From: Candidatus Zixiibacteriota bacterium | GTDB taxonomy: Bacteria; Zixibacteria; MSB-5A5; SM1-73 | Assembly (NCBI GenBank): GCA_049694315.1 | Contig: JBAVQU010000021.1 | Span: 20,372-84,371 of the forward strand | DNA: 64,000 bases | Direction of reading: 5' to 3' | In this document: positions 8,869 through 53,761 of the stretch, piece by piece | Numbering within the stretch: position 1 is the first letter of the stretch | Layout: each line of letters starts with the position of its first letter | Made by a program: the position numbers and the translations under genes | Notes under the pieces: model-generated | What the model saw: the letters and a program-made list of their open reading frames with translations, nothing else | The model's database searches: none | What the model was told of the DNA's origin: nothing

Positions 8869-10334
8869 CTAAAAGTCGAAATAATCGTGATAATCAAATG
8901 AAAAATCTTCCGGAAGATATTCGCCTAATCTGGCGTCAAGTGTATACTTTCCGCGATAATCTCCCTTCGAAATCCTCTCCACAGCTTCGATCAACCAGTC
9001 TGCGTCCTGGCGGGTATTGTAAAAACCGAAACTTACCCGAACGGCGCCGGGAAGATTAGCTTTGTATGATCTTTTGATCTCCTCCTTAAGCTGCCTGGTT
9101 TGTTCCTCTGTTATGCCCAAGAGGCTTTTGATGTAAGGGTGAGCGCAAAAACACCCATGCCGCACCCCAATGCCTGCCTCGTAGCTCAATACGCTGGACA
9201 CCAAGGCGTGATGGACTCCAGTCAAGTTGAAAGGGATCACCCCCAGGCGATCCCCCTCCAACAGATCACTTCCATAGATAGCCGTGCCTTTGATTGATTC
9301 GAGGCTCTCAATGGTATACCGGGTCAATTCCTTCTCATGTTGGGCGATGAGGTCCATCCCGATTCCCTTTAAGGTCTCTATCGACTGGGCCAGGGCCACT
9401 GCCCCAACCACGTTTGGAGAGCCGACCTCTTCTTTGTTGGGCAAACCGGTCCACTGGACTTCATCTCTGGTAACCAACTCTACCGTCCCTCCTCCCACAT
9501 GCTCCGGGTCCCCCTGCAGGAAAACCGACTTCGGTCCGATGAGGACTCCTGTGCCAAACGGCGCATACAGCTTGTGGGCCGAGAAAACCAGAAAATCGAT
9601 GTGCTCCGGATCGTCGTCGGGTCTGACATCGACCGAGCGGTGAGCAACCAATTGAGCTGCATCCACAACTATTTTTGCGCCGCACCGATGGGCCAACCCG
9701 GCTACACGATGAATTGGTGTCACGTAGCCGGTGACGTTGGACGCAGCGGTGATGGCCACCAGTTGAATCCTTCCGTTGCCGTTCCTCAGCTTGGCTTCGA
9801 TGTCCTCCAGACTCAGCCCCCCCTCTTGTCCACCTCGGCATAAATCACCTTAGCCCTTCTTCTCCAGGGGAGATCGTTGGAATGATGCTCCATGCCTGTG
9901 GATAGCACCACCGATCCCTCTTCGAGAGGAAAACGATAGGCCAGCTTGTTCAGGGCCTCAGAAGTATTCTTGGTAAAAATGACCGCATTCGACGAGAGGT
10001 CCGCCCCCACAAAGTTCCCTGCCACCTCATGTGCCGAATCATACACCCAGGACGACAGCATGGATTTGAAACCGGACCCCCGGTGGACGCTGGAGTACCA
10101 TTCCATGAATTGGCTGACCTTCTCCAGTACCGGCAAAAGCGACGGGGTGCTGGCGGCGTTGTCCAGATTCACGTACCTCCGTAGAGACCCATCCATAAGG
10201 GGCACTTGTCTATCCACGCCCACGATCAGATTCCGAAGGCGACTGAAACGAACGTCGAGATCCTCTGCCGTTGCCTTAACAACGCCCATACTCGTTTCTC
10301 TCCCGCCTCCCGGCACGTTGGGGTTTCGGGCCAT
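8869..10334 (-). pseudogene. Class V aminotransferase of the cysteine desulfurase/selenocysteine lyase family (SufS/CsdA-like). It is split by a -1 frameshift in a C7/G7 homopolymer at 9817-9823.
   Basis: The N-terminal ORF contains YVNLDNAASTP. The C-terminal ORF contains ITAASNVTGYV, the PLP-lysine motif FSAHKLYAPFGTGVL and the active-site Cys motif RHGCFCAHPY. Adding one G to the run fuses them as ...EVDKRGGLSLEDIEAKLRNGNGRIQLVAITAASNVTG. Confidence 0.65.
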
Positions 10335-16230: not shown

Positions 16231-17403
16231 ATGAAGATCATAATTGCTACAGACAATTATTACCCCCACATTAACGGCGCTTCTCTCTTCGCGCAAAGAC
16301 TCGCCTTCCATCTCAAAAAACAAGGCCACTCAGTCTTAGTCATCGCCCCGTCGCTTACCACTCATTCCGAATTCTCTACTACCAACGGAATCCGCATATT
16401 CGGAATTCGCTCGGTCCCAATACTTATGTACCGGGGATTTCGTGTCTCCCTCCCTTTCTTCATGAAGAAACGGATGGAAGAGATCATACAGGAATTTGAT
16501 CCCGATATCATACATTTCCAAGGTCACTTCTATATTTCCAAAGCCGTTCTTTCGATTGCCCAGAAATTAAAGATACCTACATTAGGAACGAATCACTTCA
16601 TGCCCGAAAACGCCATTCATTATCTTCATCTTCCCAAGTTTGCAGAGAATCCGATTAAGAGATGGGCTTGGAAACAATTTCACTCAGCCTTCGAAAGAAT
16701 GGATATTGTCACTTGTCCAACAGAGACTGCGGTTCAAGTCGTTCGGAGTAACCACCTCAGAAAAAACGCCATGGTTGTGTCTAACGGTGTGGATTTATCA
16801 GAGTTCCATGCCGGTAATGACGGGACATATCTTAAGGAAAAATATAAGCTGCCGGATGAACCCATACTCTTATATGTGGGAAGGCTGGACAAGGAAAAGA
16901 ATATCGATATGATTCTCCGGGCCTTAGCTCTGGTGACAAAGAGAATCAATGTCCACTTTGTAGTGGCGGGTGACGGAGAAGAAAAAGCTGAGCTTAGGAA
17001 CTCGACGAAAGATCTTAATCTTGAAAAGCTCGTTACCTTCACCGGATACGTGTTAGATGAGGATTTACGGAACATATATCGGATTGCCGACTGCTTTGTT
17101 ATTGCCGGAGCCGCTGAATTGCAGAGTATCGTTACCATGGAGGCGATGGCTTCGGGATTGCCGGTGATTGCCCTGAATGCATTGGCTCTGCCTGAACTGG
17201 TTAAGCCCGGGGTAAATGGGTATCTGTTTGAATTCAACGACATAAATGGCTTGGCGCAGGATATCATGAGGATCTTTTCGGATGATTCCCTCCGAAAAAA
17301 GATGGCTGCCGAAAGCTTGGAGCTTATCAAAGACCACCGCATCGAAAATACTGTCCATAAGTTTGAGTCACTCTACCAGTCGCTGCTTAAAAAGAATAAA
17401 TAG
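16231..17403 (+). CDS. Glycosyltransferase family 4 protein
   Basis: Reads MKIIIATDNYYPHINGASLFAQRLAFHLKKQGHSV and carries the GT4 motif EAMASGLPVIALNALALPELVKPGVNGYLF. Confidence 0.75.
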   Translation: MKIIIATDNYYPHINGASLFAQRLAFHLKKQGHSVLVIAPSLTTHSEFSTTNGIRIFGIRSVPILMYRGFRVSLPFFMKKRMEEIIQEFDPDIIHFQGHFYISKAVLSIAQKLKIPTLGTNHFMPENAIHYLHLPKFAENPIKRWAWKQFHSAFERMDIVTCPTETAVQVVRSNHLRKNAMVVSNGVDLSEFHAGNDGTYLKEKYKLPDEPILLYVGRLDKEKNIDMILRALALVTKRINVHFVVAGDGEEKAELRNSTKDLNLEKLVTFTGYVLDEDLRNIYRIADCFVIAGAAELQSIVTMEAMASGLPVIALNALALPELVKPGVNGYLFEFNDINGLAQDIMRIFSDDSLRKKMAAESLELIKDHRIENTVHKFESLYQSLLKKNK

Positions 17404-17500
17404 AGAATGATAAGCTCAATGAGCATGAGGTAAAAGACTGGGCTGGTGATTTACCAAAGGACATGGTTGACCTACGAATTACTAGCATGATGTCAGATTC

Positions 17501-17690
17501 AAATCCCCCTTAATCCCCCTTTGCTAAAGGGGGATTTCTACTCAGGCTGATTGTCGGGCAGCTTGCCAAATGGGTCGCAACCGGAATTTACAAATCTTCG
17601 TGCGGGGCTGGGAGCCCCGCCTACGAGCTTGCTGGACTTGCTGGGCTGGCTGGGCTTGCGGATAGCTGTTTTTCATTTTTCCAGTCGTCC
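17501..17690 (+). repeat. GC-rich palindromic repeat element, copy A. The palindrome (AAATCCCCCTT...AAGGGGGATTT) is followed by GCTGATTGTCGGGCAGC and GGGTCGCAACC.
   Basis: It shares the palindrome, the GCTGATTGTCGGGCAGCT segment and the G(G/A)TCGCAACC(G/A)GA.TTACAAA segment with copy B at 18166-18352. It also contains a perfect hairpin GCGGGGC-TGGGA-GCCCCGC. Confidence 0.5.
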
Positions 17691-17709
17691 TGCTGCATGA
17701 ACTATAACA

Positions 17710-17925
17710 TTCAAACCAAAGGACATAGCGAACTCCCGATACTGATGTTACTGACATTTCTGGCGTTACTGGCGGTTGTTTTAATTTTTTTCCATTCCTA
17801 CTGAAGTATGAGCTTTGCTGTTCATACAAAAGGACATAGCGGATCTGCGATACCGGTGTTTCTGGCGCATCTGGTGCTTCTGGTGTTTGTTTTTATTTTT
17901 TTTCACTTTCATCGCAAGTGATTGA
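17710..17925 (+). repeat. Two tandem ~100-bp units at ~75% identity. Each begins AAAGGACATAGCG and encodes a ~20-aa hydrophobic peptide (17745..17804 and 17856..17921).
   Basis: Unit 1 encodes MLLTFLALLAVVLIFFHSY and unit 2 encodes (V)FLAHLVLLVFVFIFFHFHRK. The units align along their whole length. Confidence 0.5.
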
Positions 17926-17956
17926 AGTTTAATACATTAGATATTGTGTCGGGTGA

Positions 17957-18021
17957 ATTCAAAGTTCAAGGTTCAAGGCTCAAAGTTCAAGGTTCAAAAT
18001 TCCAATTCAAAATTCAAAGTT
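17957..18021 (+). repeat. Tandem heptamer array of (RRTTCAA) in about 9 units
   Basis: Reads aattcaa agttcaa ggttcaa ggctcaa agttcaa ggttcaa aattccaattcaa aattcaa. Confidence 0.8.
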
Positions 18022-18165
18022 ACGCATTCCATAAATTCGGTAAGGGTGCATGAACAATATATTCCATCTCCTACAAACAAGCGCGGTATCCGCTTCAACA
18101 TTGAAGCTGTGGCGAATTTGTTTTTTGTGGTAAGAGAGACAACGGGTTAGGTCGTGGGTTTAGAA

Positions 18166-18352
18166 CCCCCTGAATCCCCCTTATCAGGGGGACAACCCCC
18201 TAAATCCCCCTTTGCCAGAGGGGGATTTCAAGTCAAGCTGATTGTCGGGCAGCTGTCCCGCCCTTCGGGTCTGAGCCTTCCTTCGATACTGAGTCTCAGG
18301 ACGAAGTGCAGGGTCGAAGACCAAAAGCGGGATCGCAACCAGACTTACAAAC
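18166..18352 (+). repeat. GC-rich palindromic repeat element, copy B, with internal insertions relative to copy A
   Basis: Contains CCCCCTGAATCCCCCTTATCAGGGGG, then AAATCCCCCTTTGCCAGAGGGGGATTT, then GCTGATTGTCGGGCAGCT, and about 75 bp later GGGATCGCAACCAGACTTACAAAC. Confidence 0.5.
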
Positions 18353-18530
18353 TACAGGTTAGGTTGTTGTCGGACAGATAAAACGCCCGACACCCTTCGA
18401 CTATGCTCAGGGTAAACGAAGGTCGGGCGCTACGCATTTAAGGACCAAGCTCACGGGGGCAATGGAGTGTAGCAAAATCCCTGTCCGGGTGCATGCACTG
18501 GTCAGACGCTTCATATTCAGTGGGCAGGTC

Positions 18531-18578
18531 AGAAGCCCCGTACTCCTGACTTATCTTGGTGTCAGGCGCGCAGGGCAC
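18531..18578. repeat. Copy 1 of a 45-bp hairpin repeat (GAAGCCCCGTACTCCTGACTTATCTTGGTGTCAGGCGCGCAGGGCA)
   Basis: Near-identical copies lie at 19031..19080 and 19622..19655. It contains the inverted repeat CCTGAC-N10-GTCAGG. Confidence 0.7.
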
Positions 18579-18595
18579 TCGAACTCCGGACTTAT

Positions 18596-18949
18596 CTATT
18601 TGTTACCAGAGGCGTTTGGTCGGTTGCTTTTCTTTTCGATTAAGGCTTGAAGGTCATCTATATCCTTCTGTGCTTTGGAGTTCTCTTCACGAATATCCCA
18701 CAAAGATGGTCGTTTATCTGTTCTGAGGACACGTCGAAACACCTGTTCGGAGAGATAACCCACAATGAAGGTGCCCAGTAGAGTTAGGCCACCAATCTTC
18801 CACCCATTATTCCAGAAGACAAGAACTACCATCACAAGCCAAATCATTCCACATACACCAGCGATACTTACAGACCAATGTCCTCGACCTGCAATTCCAA
18901 ATGTCATTGCTATAATAGCGATGAATGCAAGTAACAAGTAGAGAATCAC
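18596..18949 (-). CDS. Hypothetical small membrane protein of 117 aa with 3 predicted TM helices and a charged C-terminal tail
   Basis: It is an ORF with strongly hydrophobic N-terminal segments, flanked on both sides by the 45-bp hairpin repeat. Confidence 0.4.
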   Translation of the reverse strand: MILYLLLAFIAIIAMTFGIAGRGHWSVSIAGVCGMIWLVMVVLVFWNNGWKIGGLTLLGTFIVGYLSEQVFRRVLRTDKRPSLWDIREENSKAQKDIDDLQALIEKKSNRPNASGNK

Positions 18950-19030
18950 AAGACTTGATCCCTCCTAACTTCTTTTTATATGGTTTCCATATAAACCCAC
19001 TCTAGGGTTTAGCTTCCATTGAGCTTTTAG

Positions 19031-19080
19031 GTCAGGAGCCCCATGCTCCTGACTTATCTTGGTGTCAGGTGCGCAGGGCA
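19031..19080. repeat. Copy 2 of the 45-bp hairpin repeat
   Basis: Reads GTCAGGAGCCCCATGCTCCTGACTTATCTTGGTGTCAGGTGCGCAGGGCA. Confidence 0.7.
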
Positions 19081-19093
19081 GCTCACCTACTGG

Positions 19094-19570
19094 CTATTCC
19101 GACTCCATGTCTTCGATTTGTCTTTTCATCTCTCGCTTTTTGATTTCCAGCAATTTATTGAATTCTGCATTTTTCTCATTTTCGATGGCTTCAATCTTCG
19201 CTCGTAAAGAATACTCGAGACCGATCGCGCCCGGCTGCCTTTTGACTTCCTGCAGCTTTTCTCGCAAATACCTTAACTTTTCTCCATATTTAATATCGTA
19301 TTCAGTGTCCAAAGTCCGGCGGACGCTGTCATCCCAGACTTTTAAGTCTTCTTCGTGTCTTTGTCTAAGGACTTCTTTCTTAGTTTTTGTGTCTCTCCTC
19401 TTGAGGAAGTGTCTGCGCCAATCAAGCACCGTATCGGTGATTAGGGGAACAACAATAGCTCCCACAATAATCACAGATATTATCCTCCAGAATTTTCGTT
19501 TAAGACTCACTTCGAACCCAAGTATTTTTCTCATGGCTGAATTCCAAAAACTTACTCTATCATTTGTCAA
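19094..19570 (-). CDS. Hypothetical membrane-anchored coiled-coil protein of 158 aa
   Basis: It has a single TM helix (IISVIIVGAIVVPLI) followed by a highly charged K/E/R-rich predicted coiled coil. It is flanked by copies 2 and 3 of the hairpin repeat. Confidence 0.4.
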   Translation of the reverse strand: MTNDRVSFWNSAMRKILGFEVSLKRKFWRIISVIIVGAIVVPLITDTVLDWRRHFLKRRDTKTKKEVLRQRHEEDLKVWDDSVRRTLDTEYDIKYGEKLRYLREKLQEVKRQPGAIGLEYSLRAKIEAIENEKNAEFNKLLEIKKREMKRQIEDMESE

Positions 19571-20430: not shown

Positions 20431-20739
20431 TCAGCGGCGGTGCGCCAGCGTCGTCCGCTGCAACGATTTGTTAGGCTTTCTCGCCTTTGTTCTCTGCTTT
20501 TTGGGCAGCAGTGGAATTAAACAACGCAAAGCCCGATTCACAGATTCCGAGTCTGGGAAATACGCTCGAATATCCGGTTCCAGGACAACTGCACCTTTTT
20601 TTGGCATCACGTCCTTAACAACAGTTGTACCATCCACCTTATGAATAGCGATGGTATACCCGGCTTGCATGGCTTTGTGGTGCTTGCCACGCACTCCACC
20701 CCTAAAATTATATTCCGTACGCATATCGTTGTCCTCCAC
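20431..20739 (-). CDS. brnA: BrnA-family antitoxin
   Basis: Has the C-terminal BrnA motif VLEPDIRAYFPDSESVNRALRCLI. It lies immediately downstream of a BrnT-like toxin gene. Confidence 0.55.
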   Translation of the reverse strand: MEDNDMRTEYNFRGGVRGKHHKAMQAGYTIAIHKVDGTTVVKDVMPKKGAVVLEPDIRAYFPDSESVNRALRCLIPLLPKKQRTKARKPNKSLQRTTLAHRR

Positions 20740-20749
20740 CTATACTATT

Positions 20750-21037
20750 TTAGTCACTGCCTTCTTCATAAAGTTTCCGCTCCGATGACGTTGCCTTACG
20801 ACTACTGATAATACGTATGTTGGAGCCTCGTTCGGTATAAACCACTACCAGTATGTGACCCTTATCAGAACTGCCAATGTCAATATACCGCTGCTCCTCC
20901 ACTGAATGGCCTGGATCAGGCATCGTAATTGAAAAGGGATCAACGAAAACCGTTGTGGCTTCATCAAAACTGACTTGGTGCTTTTTGAGATTCGCTTTGG
21001 CTTTTTCTTCATCCCACTCAAAGCTCAGTTTCATCAT
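20750..21037 (-). CDS. brnT: BrnT-family (DUF497) ribonuclease toxin
   Basis: Reads MKLSFEWDEEKAKANLKKHQVSFDEATTVFVDP...ILVVVYTERGSNIRIISSRKAT, which matches the BrnT signature. Confidence 0.65.
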   Translation of the reverse strand: MMKLSFEWDEEKAKANLKKHQVSFDEATTVFVDPFSITMPDPGHSVEEQRYIDIGSSDKGHILVVVYTERGSNIRIISSRKATSSERKLYEEGSD

Positions 21038-21288
21038 GGCTCCTTTGAACCCTAGCGTGTCGTTTAAGCATAACCGGCCGCGGTTCACCCGCCGCGCGGG
21101 TGCGGGATAGAGCTTCTGCTACGAGACCAACTACAAGCGCGTGTAGCCGCCGATTCGCGCGCGCCATAGCGCAGTCGGGTGCAAGCGCTGGTTAGGTGGC
21201 CCGCTTGGGCTTTACGTATGCCCGCCAGGTCCCCTTGACCTGGTGGGGAGCTCCTATCAGGTCGGGGACCTCAAGAGGTACTATTTTC

Positions 21289-22101: not shown

Positions 22102-22773
22102 TCACCACCACAGGCTTCTCCACATCAGTCTGAGGAATCTACCCGTGTCAGTTAGGGGACGAATGAAGCTTCTCCCCCCTGCATAGATGGTGTCGATGGC
22201 AACTTGATTTATCCGGAATCCCTTTCGGCTGGCTTTGACCAAGATTTCCGATTCTAAATCGTACTTCTTGGACTCCAATTTGACGCTCCTTATGACCTCA
22301 ATCGGGATCAGCCTGTAGCCGGACTGGCTATCTCTGATGGATTGACCCGACAAAATCGATAGAACAGTCGAGGTCAACTTGTTGCTCAGCCACCGGGACA
22401 AAGGCATGGTCTTCAAATCCATCCTTCTGGTGCCGATCAGAATAGCCGGCAAAACGCCTCTTTTGCGCATAAAATCAGGGAGAGAGCGCGGATCGTGTTG
22501 TAGATCGGCATCCATGGTAATCACAGCATCATAGTTGTTTTCCACCGCATATCTGAATCCGGTTTTCAACGCTTCCCCCTTACCCTGGTTGCGGTCGTGC
22601 TTCAGGACCACCACACCGGCCTTTTGAGCGATCTGAGAGGTCTGATCACCTGACCCATCATCCACCACCACCATAACATCTCTGTCTATGAATTTCGAGG
22701 TCTTCTCTATTAGCTCCAGGATGGTCGAGGCGGCATTGTATGCGGGGATAAGTACCAGGAACCCTTTGGTCAT
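22102..22773 (-). CDS. Glycosyltransferase family 2 protein, a polyprenyl-phosphate sugar transferase of the DPM1/ArnC type
   Basis: Reads LVLIPAYNAASTILELIE...VVVDDGSGDQTSQIA...DAVITMDADLQHDP. Confidence 0.7.
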   Translation of the reverse strand: MTKGFLVLIPAYNAASTILELIEKTSKFIDRDVMVVVDDGSGDQTSQIAQKAGVVVLKHDRNQGKGEALKTGFRYAVENNYDAVITMDADLQHDPRSLPDFMRKRGVLPAILIGTRRMDLKTMPLSRWLSNKLTSTVLSILSGQSIRDSQSGYRLIPIEVIRSVKLESKKYDLESEILVKASRKGFRINQVAIDTIYAGGRSFIRPLTDTGRFLRLMWRSLWW

Positions 22774-22803
22774 GAACGATGGAATATGGATTCTTAACTA
22801 AAA

Positions 22804-22879
22804 ATCGGGGCGAGCCGATTTGAACGGCCGACCCCTTGCACCCCAAGCAAGTGCGCTAACCAGTCTGCGCTACGCCCCG
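22804..22879 (-). tRNA. tRNA-Pro (anticodon GGG)
   Basis: The minus-strand sequence is CGGGGCG TA GCGC AGACTGGTTA GCGC A CTTGC TTGGGGT GCAAG GGGTC GGCCG TTCAAAT CGGCT CGCCCCG A. It folds as a cloverleaf with a 7-bp acceptor stem, a D arm, anticodon loop UUGGGGU and a TPsiC arm; CCA is not encoded. Confidence 0.8.
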
Positions 22880-22916
22880 ATTTAGTTAGAACAGTATAAT
22901 CTGCCTCGATGATAAG

Positions 22917-23264
22917 TCAAGACAGAATCTCTAAAATCTCAGAAAGCTCCCTCTTGATTTCCTCCAGAAGACCCTGAAGCTTCATCTTCTCCACCACCAC
23001 CGGACCCAATTCGTCACGCCGCAGCTCCTTCAGTCTGGACTTGGCTCCCTCGATGGTATATCCTTCTTCGTACAGGAGGTGTTTGATCTGGCTGATCAGA
23101 TCGATGTCCTTCTGCTGATAAGACCGATTGCCTGCCCGGTTCTTTTTGGGTCGGAGCAGACCAAACTCTTTTTCCCAGAATCTCAATACGTAAGGTTTGA
23201 TCCCGGTTATCTTCTCTACTTCGCCTATCGAATAGTAGAGTTTCTCGCCGACGAAAGTCTCCAA
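22917..23264 (-). CDS. MerR-family transcriptional regulator
   Basis: Has an N-terminal MerR HTH (YSIGEVEKITGIKPYVLRFWEKEFGLLRPKKNRAGNRSYQQKDIDL) and a C-terminal coiled coil. Confidence 0.7.
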   Translation of the reverse strand: METFVGEKLYYSIGEVEKITGIKPYVLRFWEKEFGLLRPKKNRAGNRSYQQKDIDLISQIKHLLYEEGYTIEGAKSRLKELRRDELGPVVVEKMKLQGLLEEIKRELSEILEILS

Positions 23265-23383
23265 CTTCTCCCCTCGCTTCTTGGACCGTTCGACTACCCT
23301 TCAGGTCCCGGGTCCACCGAAGGACAGATGCACTTCCTCATCTATGTCGTCTCTAACACAAGATACGAATTCCCGACACCAAG

Positions 23384-24391
23384 TCAACTCCAAATTTCTG
23401 ATTTTGGGTCCCGGGTCATGAGTTCGGCCATTGCCTGATCTGGCCTTTTGTTTTCAAACAGCACCCGGTAAACCTGTTGGGTGATGGGCATTTCCACTTG
23501 ATGTCTTAAAGAAAGCTGATAGGCCGACTTGGTGGTCCTTATTCCCTCGGCCACCATGGTCATCTTTGCCTCAACTTCCTTCAGGGTTCTCCCCTTGCCG
23601 ATCTCCTCTCCCACAAACCTGTTCCGGGAAAACTGGCTGATGCAGGTAGTCACCAAATCCCCAAGCCCCGAAAGCCCGGCGAAGGTCTCACGCTTCGCCC
23701 CCAGCTTTTCACCCAGCCGGATGATCTCTGCCAACCCCCTGGAGAGCAATGCGCCTTTGCTATTATCCCCCAAGCCCATTCCGTCGCATATGCCGGACGC
23801 GATGGCAATGACGTTTTTGAGCGACCCTCCCAACTCCACTCCGATCACATCGCTATTGGTATAAACCCTGAAATATGCAGTCATAAAAGTCAGTTGGACT
23901 TCTTTGGCGACGCTCTCTCTGAATCCAGCCACCACTACCGTCGTGGGTATTTTTCTGGCCACCTCCTCAGCATGGCTGGGGCCGGAAAGGGTGATGATCC
24001 TTTCATGAAGCTCCGACGACAGCTCTTGCTTCAATACCTCCGACATTCTCAAAAGCGTGTCGTTTTCAATTCCCTTGGCCAGGTTGACTACAATCGGATT
24101 CCTCACTTCTATGGCACTGATCTTTTTTGCTACCTCCCTGACCGTGTGCGAAGGAAGCGCCAAAACCAAGATGTCAGCGTTTGCGACCGCAGGCTCGAGA
24201 TCACCCGCAATTTCCACTCGATCGGGGATGACGACTCCCGGAAGTTTCTGCTTATGTTCTCTTCGTGCGCGCAGATTCCCCATCTCTGCCGGATCAAACT
24301 CCCACAACGTCACCTTGTGTCCGTTGTGGTCGAGAAGCGTGGAAATGGCAATCCCCCACCCACCTGCACCCAATACTGCGATTTCTGCCAT
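23384..24391 (-). CDS. gpsA: NAD(P)H-dependent glycerol-3-phosphate dehydrogenase
   Basis: Has the Rossmann fold (MAEIAVLGAGGWGIAIS) and a GpsA-like body; it is adjacent to plsY. Confidence 0.85.
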   Translation of the reverse strand: MAEIAVLGAGGWGIAISTLLDHNGHKVTLWEFDPAEMGNLRARREHKQKLPGVVIPDRVEIAGDLEPAVANADILVLALPSHTVREVAKKISAIEVRNPIVVNLAKGIENDTLLRMSEVLKQELSSELHERIITLSGPSHAEEVARKIPTTVVVAGFRESVAKEVQLTFMTAYFRVYTNSDVIGVELGGSLKNVIAIASGICDGMGLGDNSKGALLSRGLAEIIRLGEKLGAKRETFAGLSGLGDLVTTCISQFSRNRFVGEEIGKGRTLKEVEAKMTMVAEGIRTTKSAYQLSLRHQVEMPITQQVYRVLFENKRPDQAMAELMTRDPKSEIWS

Positions 24392-24393
24392 TA

Positions 24394-25026
24394 CTAAAGA
24401 CCCTTTCGCCGGAACTTGTTCTCTGTGCCGGCCAGCAATCTCTTGATGTTACTTCTGTGATTGAAAAAAATGAATATGGTTAGAAACGCCATCATAGCGA
24501 TGAGCTGACCTGGCACCTGACTCCCAAGATAATATTTCTCAAACAGCAACGCAAACAATATAAACACGGTGGCAGAAAGCGAGCCTAAGGAGACGTACCG
24601 GGTGATGGCCACTATTAACACAAACAGAATCAGACTCATACCCATCTCCACCGGTATCAGGGACAGAAGAGCACCCAGCGCGGCGAGAATGCCTTTCCCC
24701 CCTCTGAATCCGAAGAAAATAGGAAACACATGGCCCACCACCACACATATGCCGGCGATGATTTTGAGATTAATTGGGTCCAGGTGCGCGGAACCAAGAG
24801 AGATTCTAGTCACCAAGAGCACCGCCGCCATCCCCTTGGCGACGTCAAGAATCAGTACCATTAGCGCGGGGAGAGGACCGATGACGCGATAAACGTTGGT
24901 GAACCCGGCATTCTTCGACCCGTACTCCCTGATGTCAATGCCCCTCCGGACTCGGCTGATGATAAGGCTGAAGGGAATAGAGCCTAGTGCGTAGCTCAGA
25001 ATCGCTATTAGGATGGCAGAAGCCAC
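24394..25026 (-). CDS. plsY: Glycerol-3-phosphate acyltransferase PlsY
   Basis: Reads [13 protein letters not shown]...[13 protein letters not shown], which is the PlsY family signature. Confidence 0.85.
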
Positions 25027-25210
25027 ATTCCTCCTTTCCCATTTTCACAAACGGGCCTGGGAGCAAAGTCCAGAGAAAATCCGTGTAGCCCTCCACTCTC
25101 CCGCCGATATTATGAACCAGTCCATGCCCTTCCACAAATTCCCCCGCAAATCGAAAGGAGATGAAAGCATCGTAACAGACAAACCCAAGATAATTCACAT
25201 GCAGAAGCAA
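25027..25210 (-). pseudogene. Partial duplicate of the 5' end of the downstream GT-C-like gene (25471..27033)
   Basis: It encodes [47 protein letters not shown], against [47 protein letters not shown] in the full gene. DNA identity is obvious (ATCGAAAGGAGATGAAAGCATCGT.ACAGAC). Confidence 0.55.
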
Positions 25211-25470
25211 AATAAGCCATTTTGTTAGTATGAGGCCTATGCTGATGGATTCTCTTTTTCATTTGGCACTTTTCAGGAATGAGTCATGAGGCTTTGGCCT
25301 TCGGAAGCAAAAGATGGACCTTTGAGTTGCCCCTCGATCATGGCACCAGCAAGACCGAAATCAACACTTGTTCAGAGGGGGCAATTATGTGCTTAATAGT
25401 TTACTCGACTATAGCTCCAATTTCCACGGCAACAACATCGTTCTGTGGTCGTTAGCTTATTACTCTTGTT

Positions 25471-27033
25471 TCATCCGGAGTCGAATTCCCGCAAGCTTAA
25501 AAAATAGAAATACCTGGTTTCATTTTCCGATATCCTAATAAGGAAAACCTCAACCTTGTACCCGGCACTTGACAGCGGCTCCTTGACCTCCCATTGCCAT
25601 GTGGGTTTGCTGCGCTCCTCATAGATTTTGGGCTGTCCTATGATGTAAGTAGGCCTTCGAGATGCAAGGAACTCATCTGTCACCAATTCAGTATGGCCTG
25701 GTTTCGATACTTCCCTATATGTGAAATCCTTTTGAGAGTCAGACGCCAGAGCCAAACCGAGTTCATCGATAGCATAAAGCTCCGAGTAATAAGGTATTGC
25801 CCCAGCAGCGGTGGTGGATAAGCTTTCACTCGGTTTGGCAATGCTTTTGAACATGAGTCCCGCCTTTGACCAGACGCGGACGTAATCTCTTAACAATCCT
25901 ATACTGTCCATTCCTGTCCGACTCCACATTTTGTTGCTTCCTTGGGATGGGTAAGCCAGGAAGAATGCGCACAATCCTATCAGCAGAATCTCTGAAGTGA
26001 ATAAAGCGGTTTTATGTCCTGTTTTTGAAAGAGGGTGTAGATAATGATGCATTCCTCTGAATCCCTCCTGAACCAGAAAGAAAAACAAAGGCAGAATGGG
26101 CACTAAGAACCTGAACATGTCCATGAAGTCCCCTCCAACATACACTACATAAAGAGAGAAGATCAATATCATGGAGGCAAAGTAGGAAATGACTGTTTTC
26201 AATCTATGGTTCAATCTAACAGCTTCGCCTAGAAACACCAGCGGGATCATCAAAACCGGTATCCAAAACCTCTTGAGGAAATCAAAAAGATAGGAAAGAC
26301 CTTGGCGATAAAGCATCTCTCCTCCCATCTTCACATAAAATGTATTAGGCAGAAGTCTTCCATAATAGGACCACCGCCAAAAGAAGTAGACAAGAAATGG
26401 GACCAGAAAGGAAATGGTCCAGATCAACACGTTTCTCGGTCTGATCTTCTTGCTGACGGCGGAAACATAGAGCAGGCAGACGAAGGTTGTTCCGGCGAAG
26501 AGCAGTCCATCCAAACGAGTCATGCAGATCAGACTGAAGGTTATTCCGGAGAAAGCGAGGCGTTTTGGTTCGGTCATCCCCGAAAGAAAAAAGAACGAGC
26601 CTAAGAGAATCAGAAAGGTATAAAGTGACGTCTCCAAGCCTCCAGTTGACCAGGCGGCGTAAGCTCCACAACAGGCTAGCAGAAGCGGAGCCAAATAGTT
26701 GAAAAGACTTTCTCTCGGGTAAAGCCATCTGTTCAGTCGTAACAACAGCAAAACTGTGCCTAGGCTAAACAGTGCCCCCAAAACCTGTGAAACCACAACT
26801 ACGTCCAATCCCATTTTCATGAATAGGCTTACAAGCAAAGTCCATAGGAAATTGGTATACCCCTCCACCCTTTCGCCAATATTGTAGACCAGACCATGTC
26901 CCTCCACAAAATTCTTGGCATATCGAAAGGAGATGAAAGCATCGTCACAGACGAACCTGAGATAATCGATGTGTAAGAGGAGTATAAGAAATATGACGAC
27001 GGTCAGGCCTATCGAAATACAAGCTTTCTTCAT
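25471..27033 (-). CDS. Polytopic membrane protein, a putative GT-C-fold glycosyltransferase (ArnT/PMT-like)
   Basis: The 520-aa protein has at least 10 TM helices. Its N-terminal cytoplasmic-face motif DDAFISFRYAKNF.EGHGLVYN..ERVEGYTNFLW resembles lipid-linked sugar transferases. Confidence 0.5.
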   Translation of the reverse strand: MKKACISIGLTVVIFLILLLHIDYLRFVCDDAFISFRYAKNFVEGHGLVYNIGERVEGYTNFLWTLLVSLFMKMGLDVVVVSQVLGALFSLGTVLLLLRLNRWLYPRESLFNYLAPLLLACCGAYAAWSTGGLETSLYTFLILLGSFFFLSGMTEPKRLAFSGITFSLICMTRLDGLLFAGTTFVCLLYVSAVSKKIRPRNVLIWTISFLVPFLVYFFWRWSYYGRLLPNTFYVKMGGEMLYRQGLSYLFDFLKRFWIPVLMIPLVFLGEAVRLNHRLKTVISYFASMILIFSLYVVYVGGDFMDMFRFLVPILPLFFFLVQEGFRGMHHYLHPLSKTGHKTALFTSEILLIGLCAFFLAYPSQGSNKMWSRTGMDSIGLLRDYVRVWSKAGLMFKSIAKPSESLSTTAAGAIPYYSELYAIDELGLALASDSQKDFTYREVSKPGHTELVTDEFLASRRPTYIIGQPKIYEERSKPTWQWEVKEPLSSAGYKVEVFLIRISENETRYFYFLSLREFDSG

Positions 27034-27057
27034 TTACCGACCTACATGAAGTAAGAT

Positions 27058-27115
27058 TTTAAATCTTGAATCTTGAACCTTTGAACTCTCAAACTCTTAA
27101 GCTTTCGAACCCATA
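27058..27115 (-). repeat. Tandem TTCAARR heptamer array in minus-strand orientation, 25-80 bp upstream of the GT-C-like gene start
   Basis: The minus strand reads ttcgaaag cttaagag tttgagag ttcaaagg ttcaaga ttcaaga ttt. This is the same unit as the array at 17957-18021. Confidence 0.7.
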
Positions 27116-27131
27116 TTTCCTCATCCTCCGA

Positions 27132-27413
27132 TTAATCTAACCTAGTATACAATATCCACACTTCTTTTTTCGCTCCCCGATCAAAATAAATTTCGAAGAC
27201 TTCCTCCTCTACGGTCAATACTCGATAGTAATTTCTATGTTTTCTCTGCCACCATCTTTTTCTTTTGGCACCCGAGCCAGAATAGCTGTAATCCGGCCAG
27301 AAGGCAATCACCTCCTTAATCTTATATTCTTTGCCTCTCCAGATGAAGGAGACGGGGTTTCTGGTCTGCTCGTCTCGTGTGACCTCTATTTGATCGGAAT
27401 AGAATTCAGGCAT
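27132..27413 (-). CDS. Hypothetical protein of 93 aa
   Basis: The ORF has no recognisable motifs (WRGKEYKIKEVIAFWPDYSYSGSGAKRKRWWQRKHRNYYRV). It lies between the GT-C gene and der. Confidence 0.35.
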   Translation of the reverse strand: MPEFYSDQIEVTRDEQTRNPVSFIWRGKEYKIKEVIAFWPDYSYSGSGAKRKRWWQRKHRNYYRVLTVEEEVFEIYFDRGAKKEVWILYTRLD

Positions 27414-27458
27414 GGCCGAGAAGATGTTGTTAGTGCCAAAACACGTGGCCTCTGTGAA

Positions 27459-28772
27459 TCAGTCCCTCTTCTTTATCTTAATCCTGATCGGATTTCCCAA
27501 GAATCCAAAATGCTCCCGGATTTTGTTCTCCAAGTACTTCAAATATGGCTTTTGCAGAAGCTCCGGATGGTTGCAGAAGAACACGAAGGTAGGAGGTTGG
27601 ATGCCGGTTTGCGTGACGTAATATATCTTGACATATCGTCCTTTGACCGAAGCCGGAGGCTTAGCTTTTATGTCCTTTTCCAGCTTCTGATTCAACTGGC
27701 TGGTCTCTATTCTCTTTTTCCTTTCATTGTAAACCTGCAAGACCAAGTTCATAACCGTCCGTACTCTTTGCTTGGTCTTGGCTGAGATATAAATAAGCGG
27801 CACGAATCTGAGCAGCGGCGCTTCTTGCCTCAAGGTCTTGGTATAAAGATCTGCCGTCTTACCGTCTTTCTCCAAGAGATCCCATTTGTTCACGGCTATC
27901 ACCATTCCTTTTCGCAGATCAAAAACTTCCCGGGCGATTTTGACATCCTGGCTTAAAAGTCCCACCTGAGCCTCGGTCAGAATCAGGGCCACGTCGCATC
28001 TCTCGATCGATCTTAAGGTCCTCAGGGTGGTGTAGTATTCCAAACTCTCTGTGATTTTGGCCTTGCGCCGCAGGCCGGCGGTATCGATCAGGGTAAAGGA
28101 CCGACTGTCGATTTCGATTTCCGTGTCGATTGCATCTCTGGTGGTTCCCGGCGTTCCGGTAACGATCAGCTTTTCTTGACCTAAGAGGGCGTTGACGAAG
28201 GAGGATTTCCCTACGTTCGGTCTTCCGATCACCGCCACTTTGATGCTCTCCTTCTCCTCGGGGAGAGTGGACTCCTCCGGCAGACTCGAAGTCATCAGAT
28301 CCAGAAGGTCGCCGGTGTTTCTGCCGCTAATAGCGGAAACCAAGACGGCTTCCCCCAGACCCAGCCTATTCAACGAATAGGCCTCAGCCTCGTCCTTGGT
28401 CGTATCCACTTTGTTGGCTACCAGAAGAACTTGCTTTTTGGTCTTCCTTAACCGATGGGCTATCTCCAAATCCACCGACTGCGCCCCCACCTTTGCATCC
28501 ACCAGGAAAAGCACCATATCCGCTTCGGCAATGGCTATCTCTGCCTGAGCTTTCACCAATCTTTCGATTTCGGTATTACTGGAAGGTATGTATCCACCGG
28601 TGTCAATCACATAAAACCCCTTTCCATTCCATGTGGTAAAGGCGTAGTTCCGGTCTCGGGTGATTCCCGGCTGGTCATCCACCACCGCAATGCGCTTCTT
28701 CAAGAGGCGGTTGAACAGCGTGGATTTTCCTACATTCGGCCTGCCGATTATGGCAACGATGGGAACGGACAT
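27459..28772 (-). CDS. der: Ribosome-biogenesis GTPase Der (EngA), with two GTPase domains and a KH-like domain
   Basis: Reads IVAIIGRPNVGKSTLFNRL...DTGG and, in the second G domain, KVAVIGRPNVGKSSFVNAL...DTAG. Confidence 0.9.
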   Translation of the reverse strand: MSVPIVAIIGRPNVGKSTLFNRLLKKRIAVVDDQPGITRDRNYAFTTWNGKGFYVIDTGGYIPSSNTEIERLVKAQAEIAIAEADMVLFLVDAKVGAQSVDLEIAHRLRKTKKQVLLVANKVDTTKDEAEAYSLNRLGLGEAVLVSAISGRNTGDLLDLMTSSLPEESTLPEEKESIKVAVIGRPNVGKSSFVNALLGQEKLIVTGTPGTTRDAIDTEIEIDSRSFTLIDTAGLRRKAKITESLEYYTTLRTLRSIERCDVALILTEAQVGLLSQDVKIAREVFDLRKGMVIAVNKWDLLEKDGKTADLYTKTLRQEAPLLRFVPLIYISAKTKQRVRTVMNLVLQVYNERKKRIETSQLNQKLEKDIKAKPPASVKGRYVKIYYVTQTGIQPPTFVFFCNHPELLQKPYLKYLENKIREHFGFLGNPIRIKIKKRD

Positions 28773-28921
28773 GACCTCAACTGATCTTTGAGAGGGTTAT
28801 CTTTACCTTCTGCCCTTTAATGCATGGCTGATCTATATTAAGACGTCAGTCGTTGAAAAGCAACAAAAAAACCGCCAAACCAGTTTCCTGATTCGGCGGT
28901 TCAAACTAAACGAAGTCATCA

Positions 28922-31900
28922 CTATGGGCAGTGGCAACATGGAGGTGGTCCACCTTTGAACAGATAGTTAACGAGGTAGACCACATCGCCAGCATCGACA
29001 ACTCCATTACAAGTGACATCACCCATCCATAAGGGATTCGGAGCAGGACCGCCCTTAAAGAGATAGTTTATCAGGTATACTATATCTCCAGCATCGACGA
29101 TCCCGTTCCCAGTGCAATCACCACTAAGAGCAACCAGCGCACCAATCAAGCCACAGTGGGCTGAGTTAAGAGGTTCACAAGGTGAACCGTGCTGAATATA
29201 ATAGTCACCAGATATAGTTGGCGCACTGTTGCATGATATTGGGTGACAGAACAGGGGATCTGCGGAGATGCTTAATGATTCTTCTGGACAACCGGGACTA
29301 ATGAAAACACACAACTCCCCAAAACCAGAAGCATCCACGTCAGAACAACAGTTACTTGGAATGCTACCATCACAATACCACTCATTTCCATCTACCGAAC
29401 TCGTCGCGCAGTTACCCCAAACTATCGATCTCGTCAAATATGGGTTGCTAGTGTCTAATTGAGAGATTCCGCCACCTCGATTGGCCTTGTTCCCACTAAT
29501 CGTGCAACTGACAATCGTCGGTGAAGAGTTGTTACTGCAGTATATCCCACCACCATCGCCACCATAAGCTTTATTACCGGTGATTACACATTGAATAATC
29601 GTTGGAGAAGCATTGTTATAGCATGCTATTCCACCTCCGTCTGTCGCTCCATTTCCAAGAATCTTGCAGTTTTTAATTGTAGGCGAGGTATCCACACATA
29701 GGATACCGCCACCACGCTGATTCTGGTCAGTCCTCCCATTTATGATAGTGACACCCTCCACAAGTGACCCGGAGCCTTCCTGTGAGTGAAAGAAAAAACC
29801 ACGGTGCGGGATATCAATGTCAACATTAAACGTGTTACGCGAGCAATCTAAAGTACATGCATCAGCCCCGTGCTGCGAACGCACGATAATAGGCTTCGCT
29901 TGGAAAGTAATATCTCTGTTACCATCGCCCCAGAAAGTCCCATCCATAAGCAGAACAGTGTCACAATTACTGGCGGAATCAATCGCGGCTTGAATCGTGG
30001 GGACGTCTCCTGTATGGTCTGGCTTAACGACCCATTTTCGACATACAACTATCGTATCGTAATCATAATAGAAAGGACCCTGTTCAGAAAGCGCTGCTCT
30101 AACAGTAAAGGGGAAAACTCCTGTTTTGGTTGGTGTTCCTGAGATTATGCCAGTGGTATTCTCTAAAGATAACCCATCAGGTAGCTGACCTTCCACGACC
30201 CCGAGTGATGCATTACTAGAACATACGAACACTACGGTGTCCTGATATTGGTAACCGATAACCCCATTTGTTAATGGATTATGGACAAAATGGCACTCGG
30301 TAACCTCGCCCAGAAGCCAATCCAGGCAGATATCTGCTCTGAGAGGAGGTGACGTAAGTGAAGTTTCAAGAACGAAATTTTGATCTCTCTGGTCGTTAAA
30401 AACAGTGAGAGTTTCCTTTGCTACCCCATCGTCCAAGATAATGTCAATAGGCATATGGTAGACTTCAGGAACATAAGGATCTATTGAAGGAGTTTGAGTC
30501 TGTTTAAGATTAAGGAAGATCTTACCGTCGTCTCTGACAAAGAACCAGGACTCGTACACCGGATGATAGTCACTATATATCCATTCATGGAAAAAAGTAT
30601 TAAGACGTGTGTCACCCGTTACGTTAACACACACGTCTCGGAATTGTTCAGTGCTTGCATGGTTCCATTTGTAAGTACTCAAGTATTCGTGCAGAATATT
30701 ATAAAAAACTTGATTGCCTACCCAGTGCCTTAACATGTGAAGCACCCAAGATCCCTTATTGTAAACTCTATGGAGAATTTCCTCGGTAACATTTCCAACA
30801 TATCCATTCTCCAGGTATACTGATCCATGTCCCAAGTAGCGATACCGGTCGATATACCGGAACATTGCATTCAAACCATATTTTTTTCAACCCATATACA
30901 CTCTGAATATCTTGCAAAACCCTCATTGATCCAGAAATGGTTCCATGTGGAACAGGTTACACAATTACCCCACCATGAGTGAGATAGTTCATGGCTCAGT
31001 GGAGTTTGACCATACTGAGTATCGCAAATTGCAGTAATAGTCGGATACTCCATTGCTCCGAGTCTTATTGGAACCTGCATCATCCCGTATTTCTCCATTA
31101 CATATGGTGGGTAGATGCCTGAGTAAGGGTAGGCACCGAAACAGGTTTCGAAAGTATCCAACATTTCCACGACCTTAGGAAAGGAATCCCTTGCGGTAGC
31201 AACATTCTCAGGATAAACATAGAACCATATAGGCATAGTACCGTTTCCACTCTGCAAAATATAAGAAGTATCTAGTCTGACATAATTGGTACAGCCAATA
31301 CCCACTTGGTAGGTCGCAATCGGATAATGCTCTCTCCAATAGCTTGTTTCTCTTCCTCCACTGACGAACTCCATATTGAGTGTTCCGTTTGAAGCACATC
31401 TAAAGTTGTCAGGATAGGTCACCGTCATATAGATAGAGTCTGCTTTGTCCTCCACGCGGTCCTTACATGGCCACCAACGTCGGGCATAAACAGGTTCTGA
31501 CATGTTATAACAGATATCAGTCCTTGCATGAGCACCAAAAATGAATCCAAGCTGAGTCAAAGCGTAACCCGGTTTTCCATGGTAATAGACCGTGACTCTG
31601 AATGTGTCGTTATAATTGTATGTTTGGGGTTGGAAACTGATATCTACAAATGAATCCACTTGGGTACCCGTTGGATTAGCTATCCCCACGACTTTTACTG
31701 AATCGACGTGCATGTAATGGAAGGGATCATAGTCATATCTGTACAAGTCTAGCCTAATAAATGACAGTCCGTTTATTAGGCTTCGTCCTTCTAAATAAAC
31801 CGATCCGTCAATTGCTGAGTTATCAAAGTCCAAATTAAGATTGATTCGATAGAAAAGAGCGTCCCAGTCATCTTGGGAGCTATGATGGTCGCTCAAAACG

Positions 31901-53658: not shown

Positions 53659-53761
53659 TTCGATTCACCTCCTTTTCCCAGCTTCTTCTCCACGATGTTT
53701 CTTTGGAACCGTTATCAGTAATCCGTCCTTTTTGTCCAGACCTCAGTCTGCTCTTTGCTCT

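Follow-up and report, generated by a model that had tools for sequence, protein, structure and literature searches.

A clade-wide family of TTCRA tandem-repeat arrays in intergenic spacers of Zixibacteria, possibly acting as RNA leaders

The stretch of Candidatus Zixiibacteriota DNA analysed here (64,000 nucleotides, hereafter the window) holds two tandem arrays built from a short TTCAA-containing unit. The first, array 1, comprises nine TTCAARR units at 17958-18021 on the plus strand, to which Tandem Repeats Finder (TRF) assigns a period of 7, 9.3 copies, 79% matches, a score of 72 and the consensus TTCAAAG. An earlier note on this DNA had described about nine TTCAARR units at 17957-18021, and both TRF and a reading of the letters confirm that this array is real and as described. 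Its units run TTCAAAG, TTCAAGG, TTCAAGG, CTCAAAG, TTCAAGG, TTCAAAA, TTCCAA, TTCAAAA and TTCAAAG, with a period of 7 nt throughout except for the single 6-nt unit. An exact 18-nt repeat at a spacing of 21 nt within the array points to a three-unit duplication, and the longest perfect run in either array of the window is two units. Promoter and terminator scans at array 1 found neither, with no sigma-70-like match, and Rfam returned nothing relevant either at the gathering threshold over the whole window or at E <= 1 over 17300-19200. An unrelated heptamer array, four copies of TGCTCTT with 76% matches, lies elsewhere in the window at 53749-53776.

Array 1 sits in a 1.2-kb repeat-rich gap between convergent genes, bordered on the left by a GT4 gene on the plus strand that ends at 17403 and on the right by the 3' end (18596) of a minus-strand ORF encoding a 117-aa membrane protein with two transmembrane segments (18596-18949). 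It lies outside any glycan-gene promoter and has no protein-coding gene downstream. Directly 3' of it is a conserved element of about 150 nt (18010-18160, tentatively assigned to the plus strand), which consists, in order, of AAGGGTGCATG, a hairpin, a U-rich run and a near-invariant GTAAGAGAGACWACGGGTTAGGT. This element is 75% identical to positions 10390-10538 of contig L128 (contigs from relatives carry L numbers), which represents the closest sampled relative of the window (der 84%, surE 83%, gpsA 82%); the hairpin occupies the same position in both, with differing sequences. The element has no Rfam match, and its short ORFs keep no single frame from the ATG shared by the window and L128. 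It is a candidate for a small RNA, for a small ORF or for a unit that includes a terminator. Array 1 immediately precedes the element and is sense to it, an arrangement that mirrors the one between array 2 and its downstream gene start described below. On its other side, array 1 is preceded by a plus-strand module of 9-bp sub-repeats and a T-run (17849-17912, with a second copy at 17738-17801), which is 88% identical in L128 at 10170-10233 (window 17852-17909 against L128 10173-10231) and forms part of 111-nt tandem units at 17676-17897. Both modules flanking array 1 were also used as nhmmer queries, and these matched in the window and L128 only. Between the upstream module and the downstream element, L128 carries merely a decayed heptamer remnant.

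Several other repeats mark this gap. The 111-nt tandem units (two at 17676-17897, 71% identical, and also 17452-17477) each contain about four 9-bp sub-repeats resembling GGTGCTTCT, followed by GTTTTTATTTTTTT; the L128 copy of the 9-bp sub-repeat module sits right after an unrelated gene and has no evident function. A pair of 59-nt direct repeats (17505-17563 and 18196-18254, 90% identical, the sole two copies in the window), each carrying a GGGGGATTT/AATCCCCC hairpin and GCTGATTGTCGGGCAGCT, brackets a 691-nt segment that includes the 111-nt units and array 1. A second pair, of 52 nt (18526-18577 and 19029-19080, 92% identical), flanks the 117-aa ORF, and independent assemblies break there. 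Between array 1 and surE, the minus strand carries a BrnT-family toxin gene (PF04365) with an adjacent 102-aa ORF (20431-21088), and the gene order of the window after surE is not common to the sampled relatives.

Array 2 (27058-27115, minus strand) is degenerate and comprises about seven units of mixed 8- and 7-nt period. Read on the minus strand from 27115 to 27058, it runs GGTTCGAA, AGCTTAAG, AGTTTGAG, AGTTCAAA, GGTTCAA, GATTCAA and GATTTAA, that is, three degenerate 8-nt units followed by about four clean ones, and TRF detects just 27062-27081 (2.9 copies). A three-unit pattern with at most two mismatches finds seven matches in the window, five in array 1 and two in array 2, against 0.01 expected from shuffles; for a two-unit pattern, the figures are 10 and 0.82. 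Arrays 1 and 2 belong to one repeat family, above chance. The statement in the earlier note that the same array recurs in reverse at 27058-27115 is thus right as to family and overstated as to likeness, since the second array is shorter and degenerate.

The genes around array 2 form a same-strand row: der, DUF6504, the GT-C-like gene, plsY, gpsA, a MerR-like gene, tRNA-Pro, a GT2 gene and surE. The array begins about 20 nt after the stop codon of the DUF6504 gene (27132-27413, minus strand, 93 aa; PF20114, E = 2.1e-15) and ends 24 nt before the ATG (27033) of the gene at 25471-27033 on the minus strand, so it does lie directly upstream of that start, as had been stated, and is sense to both genes. 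The downstream gene encodes a 520-aa polytopic membrane protein, a distant GT-C-like glycosyltransferase. Its 3929 homologues are led by proteins of Candidatus Zixiibacteriota MAGs (60-76% identity); JGI names its relatives arabinofuranosyltransferase, and a few of them carry PF03901 or PF13231. The protein itself has no Pfam match and matches the NCBIfam AftB-like model weakly (4.4e-13, 48 bits, against a curated cut-off of 1050), for which reason the GT-C-like label that the gene had been given is plausible but not proven. A sigma-70-like match within array 2 (TTCAAA-18 nt-TAAAAT, 27085-27056) is weak and a consensus match alone. The GT-C-like start has no Shine-Dalgarno sequence. The idea of a Shine-Dalgarno-poor lineage holds in part only, since several other genes of the window have clear ones. 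Straight after the DUF6504 stop, at 27111-27131 of the minus strand, GAGGAAATATG provides a Shine-Dalgarno-like sequence and an ATG; from the latter, a mini-ORF of five codons (MGSKA) reads into array 2. The 445-nt spacer between the GT-C-like gene and plsY contains a fragment of 74 residues (25037-25258, minus strand) that is 70% identical to the GT-C N-terminus, the relic of a second tandem copy; intact tandem copies occur in L125, L127 and L131.

Taking the window and its relatives together, the unit consists of TTC-R-A and two or three further purines, with a period of 7 or 8. Long arrays of relatives consist of octamers of the form T-T-C-R-A-R-R-R, and the heptamers of the window correspond to this octamer minus one purine. 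Within the unit, TTC is 82-98% conserved and the A 96-100%, while the remaining purine positions are mixtures of A and G from which pyrimidines are almost absent. The period changes between 7 and 8 within single arrays as well as between species. The core of the octamer arrays of L127, L135 and L141, G-TTC-R-A, is similar to the 5' half of the consensus for the T-arm and loop of tRNA (GTTCRA); the complementary half is absent. The two strands differ sharply in their triplets. The sense strand, 54-66% purine, holds 0-2 start triplets even over 369 nt, whereas each unit contributes about one TTG and one TGA to the antisense strand; in array 1, the plus strand has neither ATG, GTG or TTG nor any stop triplet, and the minus strand has nine starts and eight stops. 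Folded as RNA, array 1 gains no stability over shuffles (z = 0.72), and the arrays with their leaders give z values of 0.72, 0.14, -0.49, +2.79 and -0.86, so that no stable RNA structure is predicted for them.

An open sense strand raises the question of coding, which for array 1 would mean a 7-residue repeat, SKFKVQG, within an ORF at 17944-18150. The plus strand is indeed open across array 1, and an ORF also spans the array of L135. Such open frames are automatic, however, because the unit holds no possible sense-strand stop triplet, and a period of 7 or 8 nt shifts the frame with every unit. There is no Pfam or NCBIfam match, the arrays of relatives lie between well-defined genes, and their changes in unit number are not multiples of three. 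We therefore rejected the coding reading, which is effectively refuted.

To place the arrays in their clade, metagenome contigs were scanned with an alignment of the GT-C-like protein, which yielded 80 loci, about 20 of them with close Zixibacteria orthologues, and four further species were added through exact-protein look-ups. The der-DUF6504-GT-C-plsY-gpsA synteny is kept in about 20 relatives. A census of array segments of at least three units in about 316 kb of Zixibacteria DNA from about 20 relatives found 22 of them, against 0-2 in shuffles; none was found in 60 more distant loci. Every segment is on the sense strand between co-directional genes, except array 1, whose sense orientation is relative to the conserved element that follows it, and no antisense array was seen in the 316 kb; orthologous arrays are non-independent observations, and this sense bias rests on only two or three independent genomic sites. 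The first unit lies 0-25 nt past the stop codon of the preceding gene, and a unique leader of 24-184 nt separates the array from the start of the following one. This clade-wide Zixibacteria family occupies the free part of spacers between co-directional genes, always with the purine-rich TTCRA strand as the sense strand.

The family returns to the same spacers. Arrays recur between DUF6504 and GT-C in seven relatives or gene copies and between nadK and recN in six, and a related form occurs between der and DUF6504 in L124, where an AGAGTTA array follows right after the der stop. In the DUF6504-GT-C spacer, the orthologues of array 2 comprise about 12 units in L128, 46 units over 368 bp in L135, about 24 in L141 and about 5 in L337; the arrays of L133, L136 and L341 have decayed, and ten other relatives have none. 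At the second GT-C copy, the same point carries 0 units in L125, about 12 in L131 and about 29 octamers in L127, between flanks that are 90-93% identical. The nadK-recN spacer holds 7 units in L124, about 20 in L141 and 3 each in L134, L126, L341 and L342, and the corresponding spacer of the window has no array. Orthologous DUF6504-GT-C and nadK-recN spacers thus hold anything from 0 to 46 units, and because of this range we conclude that, in the course of evolution, slippage or unequal exchange has added and removed units both singly and in blocks. Long arrays grow by block duplication and have higher-order repeats, which in L135 are 80 nt long and 94% identical and in L141 96 nt long and 84% identical. 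Array carriers are scattered over a rough GT-C tree, a quick neighbour-joining tree of 235 residues, so that either an ancestral array has been lost many times or arrays have arisen repeatedly. Because many relatives, as well as the window at its nadK-recN spacer, have no array at the same sites, the arrays must be dispensable.

Other sequences have also settled in the DUF6504-GT-C spacer. In some relatives, the array is replaced by an element of about 70 nt that forms a perfect hairpin (GCTCCCGCTGGATGTTATCAT...ATGATAACATCC...GGAGCGGGATC) and looks like a small mobile hairpin repeat; it is found in L134 at about 9910-9990, upstream of GT-C in L342, L343 and L344, and in L129 at about 1130-1195. 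The same spacer of L129 carries a 0.8-kb insert. Since it houses both this unrelated hairpin element and the insert, the spacer is a permissive site.

The earlier note had taken repeats placed upstream of surface-glycan genes as a classic phase-variation device. As a contingency locus, array 2 would undergo high-frequency slipped-strand changes in unit number within a population that switch or grade the GT-C-like surface-glycan gene, as in the hmw tract of Haemophilus influenzae. In that system, the (ATCTTTC)n repeat of hmw1A/hmw2A lies in the transcribed 5'-UTR, and its length is inversely related to expression (PMC12721329). Its perfect units, at least 11 in number, pair with a G-rich arm to form a long hairpin that is cut by RNase III, and populations vary at high frequency (PMC12721329). 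The hmw tract is the closest phase-variation system, in that heptamer tandem repeats lie ahead of the start of a surface-related gene, and it demonstrates that a transcribed heptamer repeat can grade expression. Array 2 does lie within the leader or promoter of a gene for a membrane glycosyltransferase, unit number at that spacer does vary among relatives, and long homogeneous arrays such as that of L135, with its near-identical 80-nt blocks, should be unstable. The window arrays, in contrast, lack the identical-unit tract needed for high-frequency slippage: array 1 has 79% matches, array 2 only 2.9 near-identical units, and nowhere do more than two identical units follow each other. Nor is a complementary arm for an hmw-like hairpin predicted, the minimum free energies of the leaders being no better than those of shuffles.

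Evidence on variation within a population comes from Logan contig L121 (SRR28002918), which matches window positions 22693-29493 over 6801 nt with one mismatch and no indel and leaves array 2 unchanged; same-population contigs around array 1, those with the GT4 and ICMT genes, stop at the flanking repeats (17711 and about 19051), so this replicate covers array 2 only. Exact-protein look-ups for the sulfatase and for the ORF of 117 aa, either of which might have led to another assembly across array 1, found neither on record. Two assemblies of another species share identical 3-unit arrays. The copy-number changes expected of slippage are present between relatives but were not seen at array 2 in the same-population contig. 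Arrays of the family precede GT-C in relatives, as the phase-variation claim would have it, but two genes with no surface role are preceded by them as well, recN in the spacer behind nadK and DUF6504 in the one behind der. At array 1, which lies between convergent genes beside a small non-coding element and not upstream of a glycan gene, the claim is not supported. Because the units are imperfect, housekeeping genes are preceded by arrays, the sole replicate is identical and no hmw-like hairpin is predicted, we regard classic phase variation as quite unlikely in this genome.

The other possibility raised at the outset was an array of direct-repeat binding sites for a response regulator. More broadly, a response regulator, a ribbon-helix-helix protein or a nucleoid protein might polymerise on the direct repeats in duplex DNA and control nearby promoters. 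The retention of TTC-R-A as a core and the position of arrays upstream of gene starts would fit, three heptamers span 21 bp or two helical turns, and there are precedents. The omega heptad operators of inc18 plasmids and the 8-bp met boxes of MetJ consist of contiguous units of fixed period, 2-10 in number and in both orientations, with the cognate ribbon-helix-helix gene nearby. They resemble our arrays in having contiguous 7- or 8-bp units upstream of promoters, but their fixed period, small unit number, use of both orientations and neighbouring cognate gene are not seen in the Zixibacteria arrays. Here, switching between periods of 7 and 8 breaks helical phasing, and neither whole-turn spacing (10-11 or 21 bp) nor a small fixed number of units is found; the contiguous units number 3-46, in arrays of up to 370 bp. 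Most operators, moreover, need no strict single orientation. No regulator gene is present among the immediate flanking genes of the arrays in the window or in relatives (the MerR-family gene follows gpsA and is not adjacent), and array 1 has no sigma-70-like promoter. We consider a duplex-DNA operator very unlikely, and the response-regulator suggestion finds no support in these observations.

A wider survey bears on whether the arrays need a function at all. Three TTCAARR units matched at least 120 loci in species-representative genomes, with Nostocales, Bacteroidota, Acidobacteriota, Desulfobacterota, Verrucomicrobiota, Patescibacteria and others among the matches listed. In the 120 listed loci, with ORF calls that are crude, most arrays fall between genes, and neither orientation prevails (27 sense/sense, 23 antisense/antisense). 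Among the matches listed from Acidobacteriota and Desulfobacterales, arrays often form inverted pairs, giving long hairpins between genes. About 0.8 Mb of listed loci contains at least 421 period-7 arrays, in which other heptamers are abundant too. The listed Nostocales loci have many different heptamers per genome, whereas the Zixibacteria sample has essentially one motif family. In viral contigs, where the three-unit pattern matched at least 120 loci, five TTCAARG units matched 12 loci and composition-matched control heptamers 2, 7 and 0 loci, which implies that heptamer arrays are generic and that TTCAARG is at most mildly favoured. The idea of a mobile element was dropped because the arrays of other phyla have no conserved flanks apart from the local inverted pairs.

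Some of these distant loci have structures of their own. In Acidobacteriota and one Desulfobacterales MAG, (TTCAARG)4-5 occurs as inverted pairs, some of them near-perfect long hairpins, for instance between ybaB and recR; the sites are L026 4104-4178, L035 808-882, L067 3237-3314, L084 3070-3164 and L047 1101-1654 and 3531-3757. In L047, the inverted arrays bracket segments of 230-550 bp like terminal inverted repeats, alongside heptamers such as GAAAACA. The acidobacterial locus L120 (1100-2780) carries a tandem unit of about 100 nt, repeated at least four times, that consists of GGTTACAACTTACAAG, (TTCAAAG)3-4 and TTGAGAAC.

The arrays could, then, be neutral or selfish micro-satellites, self-perpetuating slippage products in tolerant spacers with no role in expression, which would owe their shared motif and orientation to a small number of ancestral arrays. 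The extreme variation in copy number and frequent absence at orthologous sites would be expected of such tracts, as would the higher-order repeats typical of satellites and the acceptance of unrelated insertions by the DUF6504-GT-C spacer. The wide occurrence of heptamer arrays with varied sequences, controls included, in many phyla and in viral contigs points the same way, and an array start right after a stop codon is expected if only the start-proximal leader is constrained. Heptanucleotide repeats are reported as the most abundant class of long simple sequence repeats in most genomes and are ascribed to polymerase slippage, in the account of Mrazek et al. that PMC4679880 gives. A satellite accounts less well for the persistence of one recognisable motif at two spacers across species whose conserved proteins are 60-84% identical, for the fixation of TTC and A within the unit while the other purines vary, and for the lack of any antisense array in 316 kb. 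The deletion bias of bacteria, moreover, would be expected to purge neutral tracts of 200-370 bp. We judge a functionless satellite to be a distinct possibility, if a doubtful one.

We tentatively propose instead that the arrays are slippage-evolving, sense-transcribed leaders or spacers that act at the RNA level. They would be transcribed within the operon mRNA as an unstructured, start-codon-free stretch and would act on the RNA as a single-stranded leader of variable length. In this role, an array might serve as a ribosome landing or standby site, or as a beads-on-a-string platform for a single-strand RNA-binding protein; either the protein or the 30S subunit would favour (GGUUCAAG)n over its complement. 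The period of 7 or 8 nt would suit single-strand binding better than recognition of one face of duplex DNA. The expected effect is to tune, and not to switch, what lies downstream, which would be the GT-C-like gene for array 2 and the 18010-18160 element for array 1. Strict orientation, a single motif, the unequal conservation of positions in the unit and the recurrence at particular spacers all argue in favour of this RNA-level proposal, as do the placement of arrays relative to stop and start codons, the scarcity of sense-strand start triplets, the lack of predicted folding and the missing Shine-Dalgarno sequence at the GT-C-like start. Against it stand the small number of independent sites behind the sense bias, the dispensability of the arrays, the permissive nature of the spacer, the lack of a cross-phylum orientation bias, the formation of arrays by control heptamers, and the position of array 1 without a protein gene. 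We rank the proposal first, above a functionless satellite, on the strength of the anatomy and evolutionary dynamics described above; the transcription and the effect are what we infer. Two more specific roles were dropped: a CsrA sponge, suggested by CAAGGAU in the octamers of some relatives, because the window arrays contain no GGA, and a Rho-loading site, because the arrays have more G than C.

The arrays fall within the intergenic heptanucleotide class of long simple sequence repeats, having head-to-tail units of about 7 nt beyond chance and one lineage motif at dispersed intergenic sites (two in the window, and three spacers among the roughly 20 relatives). The closest described phenomenon is the set of TAACTGA repeats upstream of start codons, heptamer direct repeats that occur in marine Beggiatoaceae, some Cyanobacteria and some Bacteroidetes (MacGregor 2015, PMC4679880). 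Post-transcriptional binding by S1, Csp or CsrA has been proposed for them but not shown (PMC4679880). As in that case, the Zixibacteria arrays are mostly intergenic tandem heptamers in forward orientation upstream of starts, with one motif per lineage, sets of variable length and close relatives that lack repeats at the same spacer. They are not members of the TAACTGA family, their unit being TTCAARR or TTC-R-A-R-R(-R). Whereas TAACTGA places stops in all frames, TTCRA with purines gives no sense stops, and whereas TAACTGA sits a few nucleotides from the start, the Zixibacteria arrays abut the upstream stop and leave a leader of 24-184 nt. The Zixibacteria arrays also differ in a period that can be 8, in their length of up to 46 units and in phylum.

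Long simple sequence repeats with units of 5-11 nt were described by Mrazek et al. 2007, as far as the summaries in PMC4679880 and PMC11868660 go. Our arrays share with these, and with the cyanobacterial STRR sequences, the form of intergenic tandem heptamers, dispersed sites and an origin by slippage. STRR heptamers occur in heterocystous cyanobacteria. There, a genome has many heptamers, in contrast to the single motif family and strict sense orientation of the Zixibacteria sample. Unlike the hmw repeats, the Zixibacteria units are imperfect, no hairpin is predicted, and array 2 is unchanged in the one same-population assembly. As a working analogy for the proposed RNA-level role, the oligomeric protein TRAP binds arrays of 9-11 (G/U)AG repeats as single-stranded RNA in Bacillus trp leaders. 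The likeness lies in a short conserved core, many repeats, two or three variable spacer bases and a position in the 5' leader or ribosome-binding region. The core and unit length differ, and copy numbers in the Zixibacteria vary far more than 9-11. Literature searches for the repeat strings returned eukaryotic primers and SSR markers only, with no bacterial case found.

It is conceivable that arrays of TTC-R-A with purine spacers form a cis-regulatory code. A protein with several subunits or domains (TRAP-, Csp- or S1-like) would read it in single-stranded RNA, array length would set operon-internal expression in Zixibacteria, and STRR, TAACTGA and the hairpin-forming TTCAARG pairs of Acidobacteriota and Desulfobacterota would be lineage versions of it. 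This broader idea is, in our judgement, improbable.

To our knowledge, intergenic heptamer arrays have no established function, although cyanobacterial examples have been known for decades and those of Beggiatoaceae followed more recently; the TTCRA arrays add to this known but unexplained kind. The Zixibacteria case extends it to an uncultivated phylum, with one motif in strict sense orientation in the same two conserved-operon spacers. The natural series of 0 to 46 units in similar contexts provides a ready-made test of whether array length tunes expression. Should the arrays be functionless, they would still illustrate that a repeat in front of a surface-glycan gene need not be a phase-variation switch.
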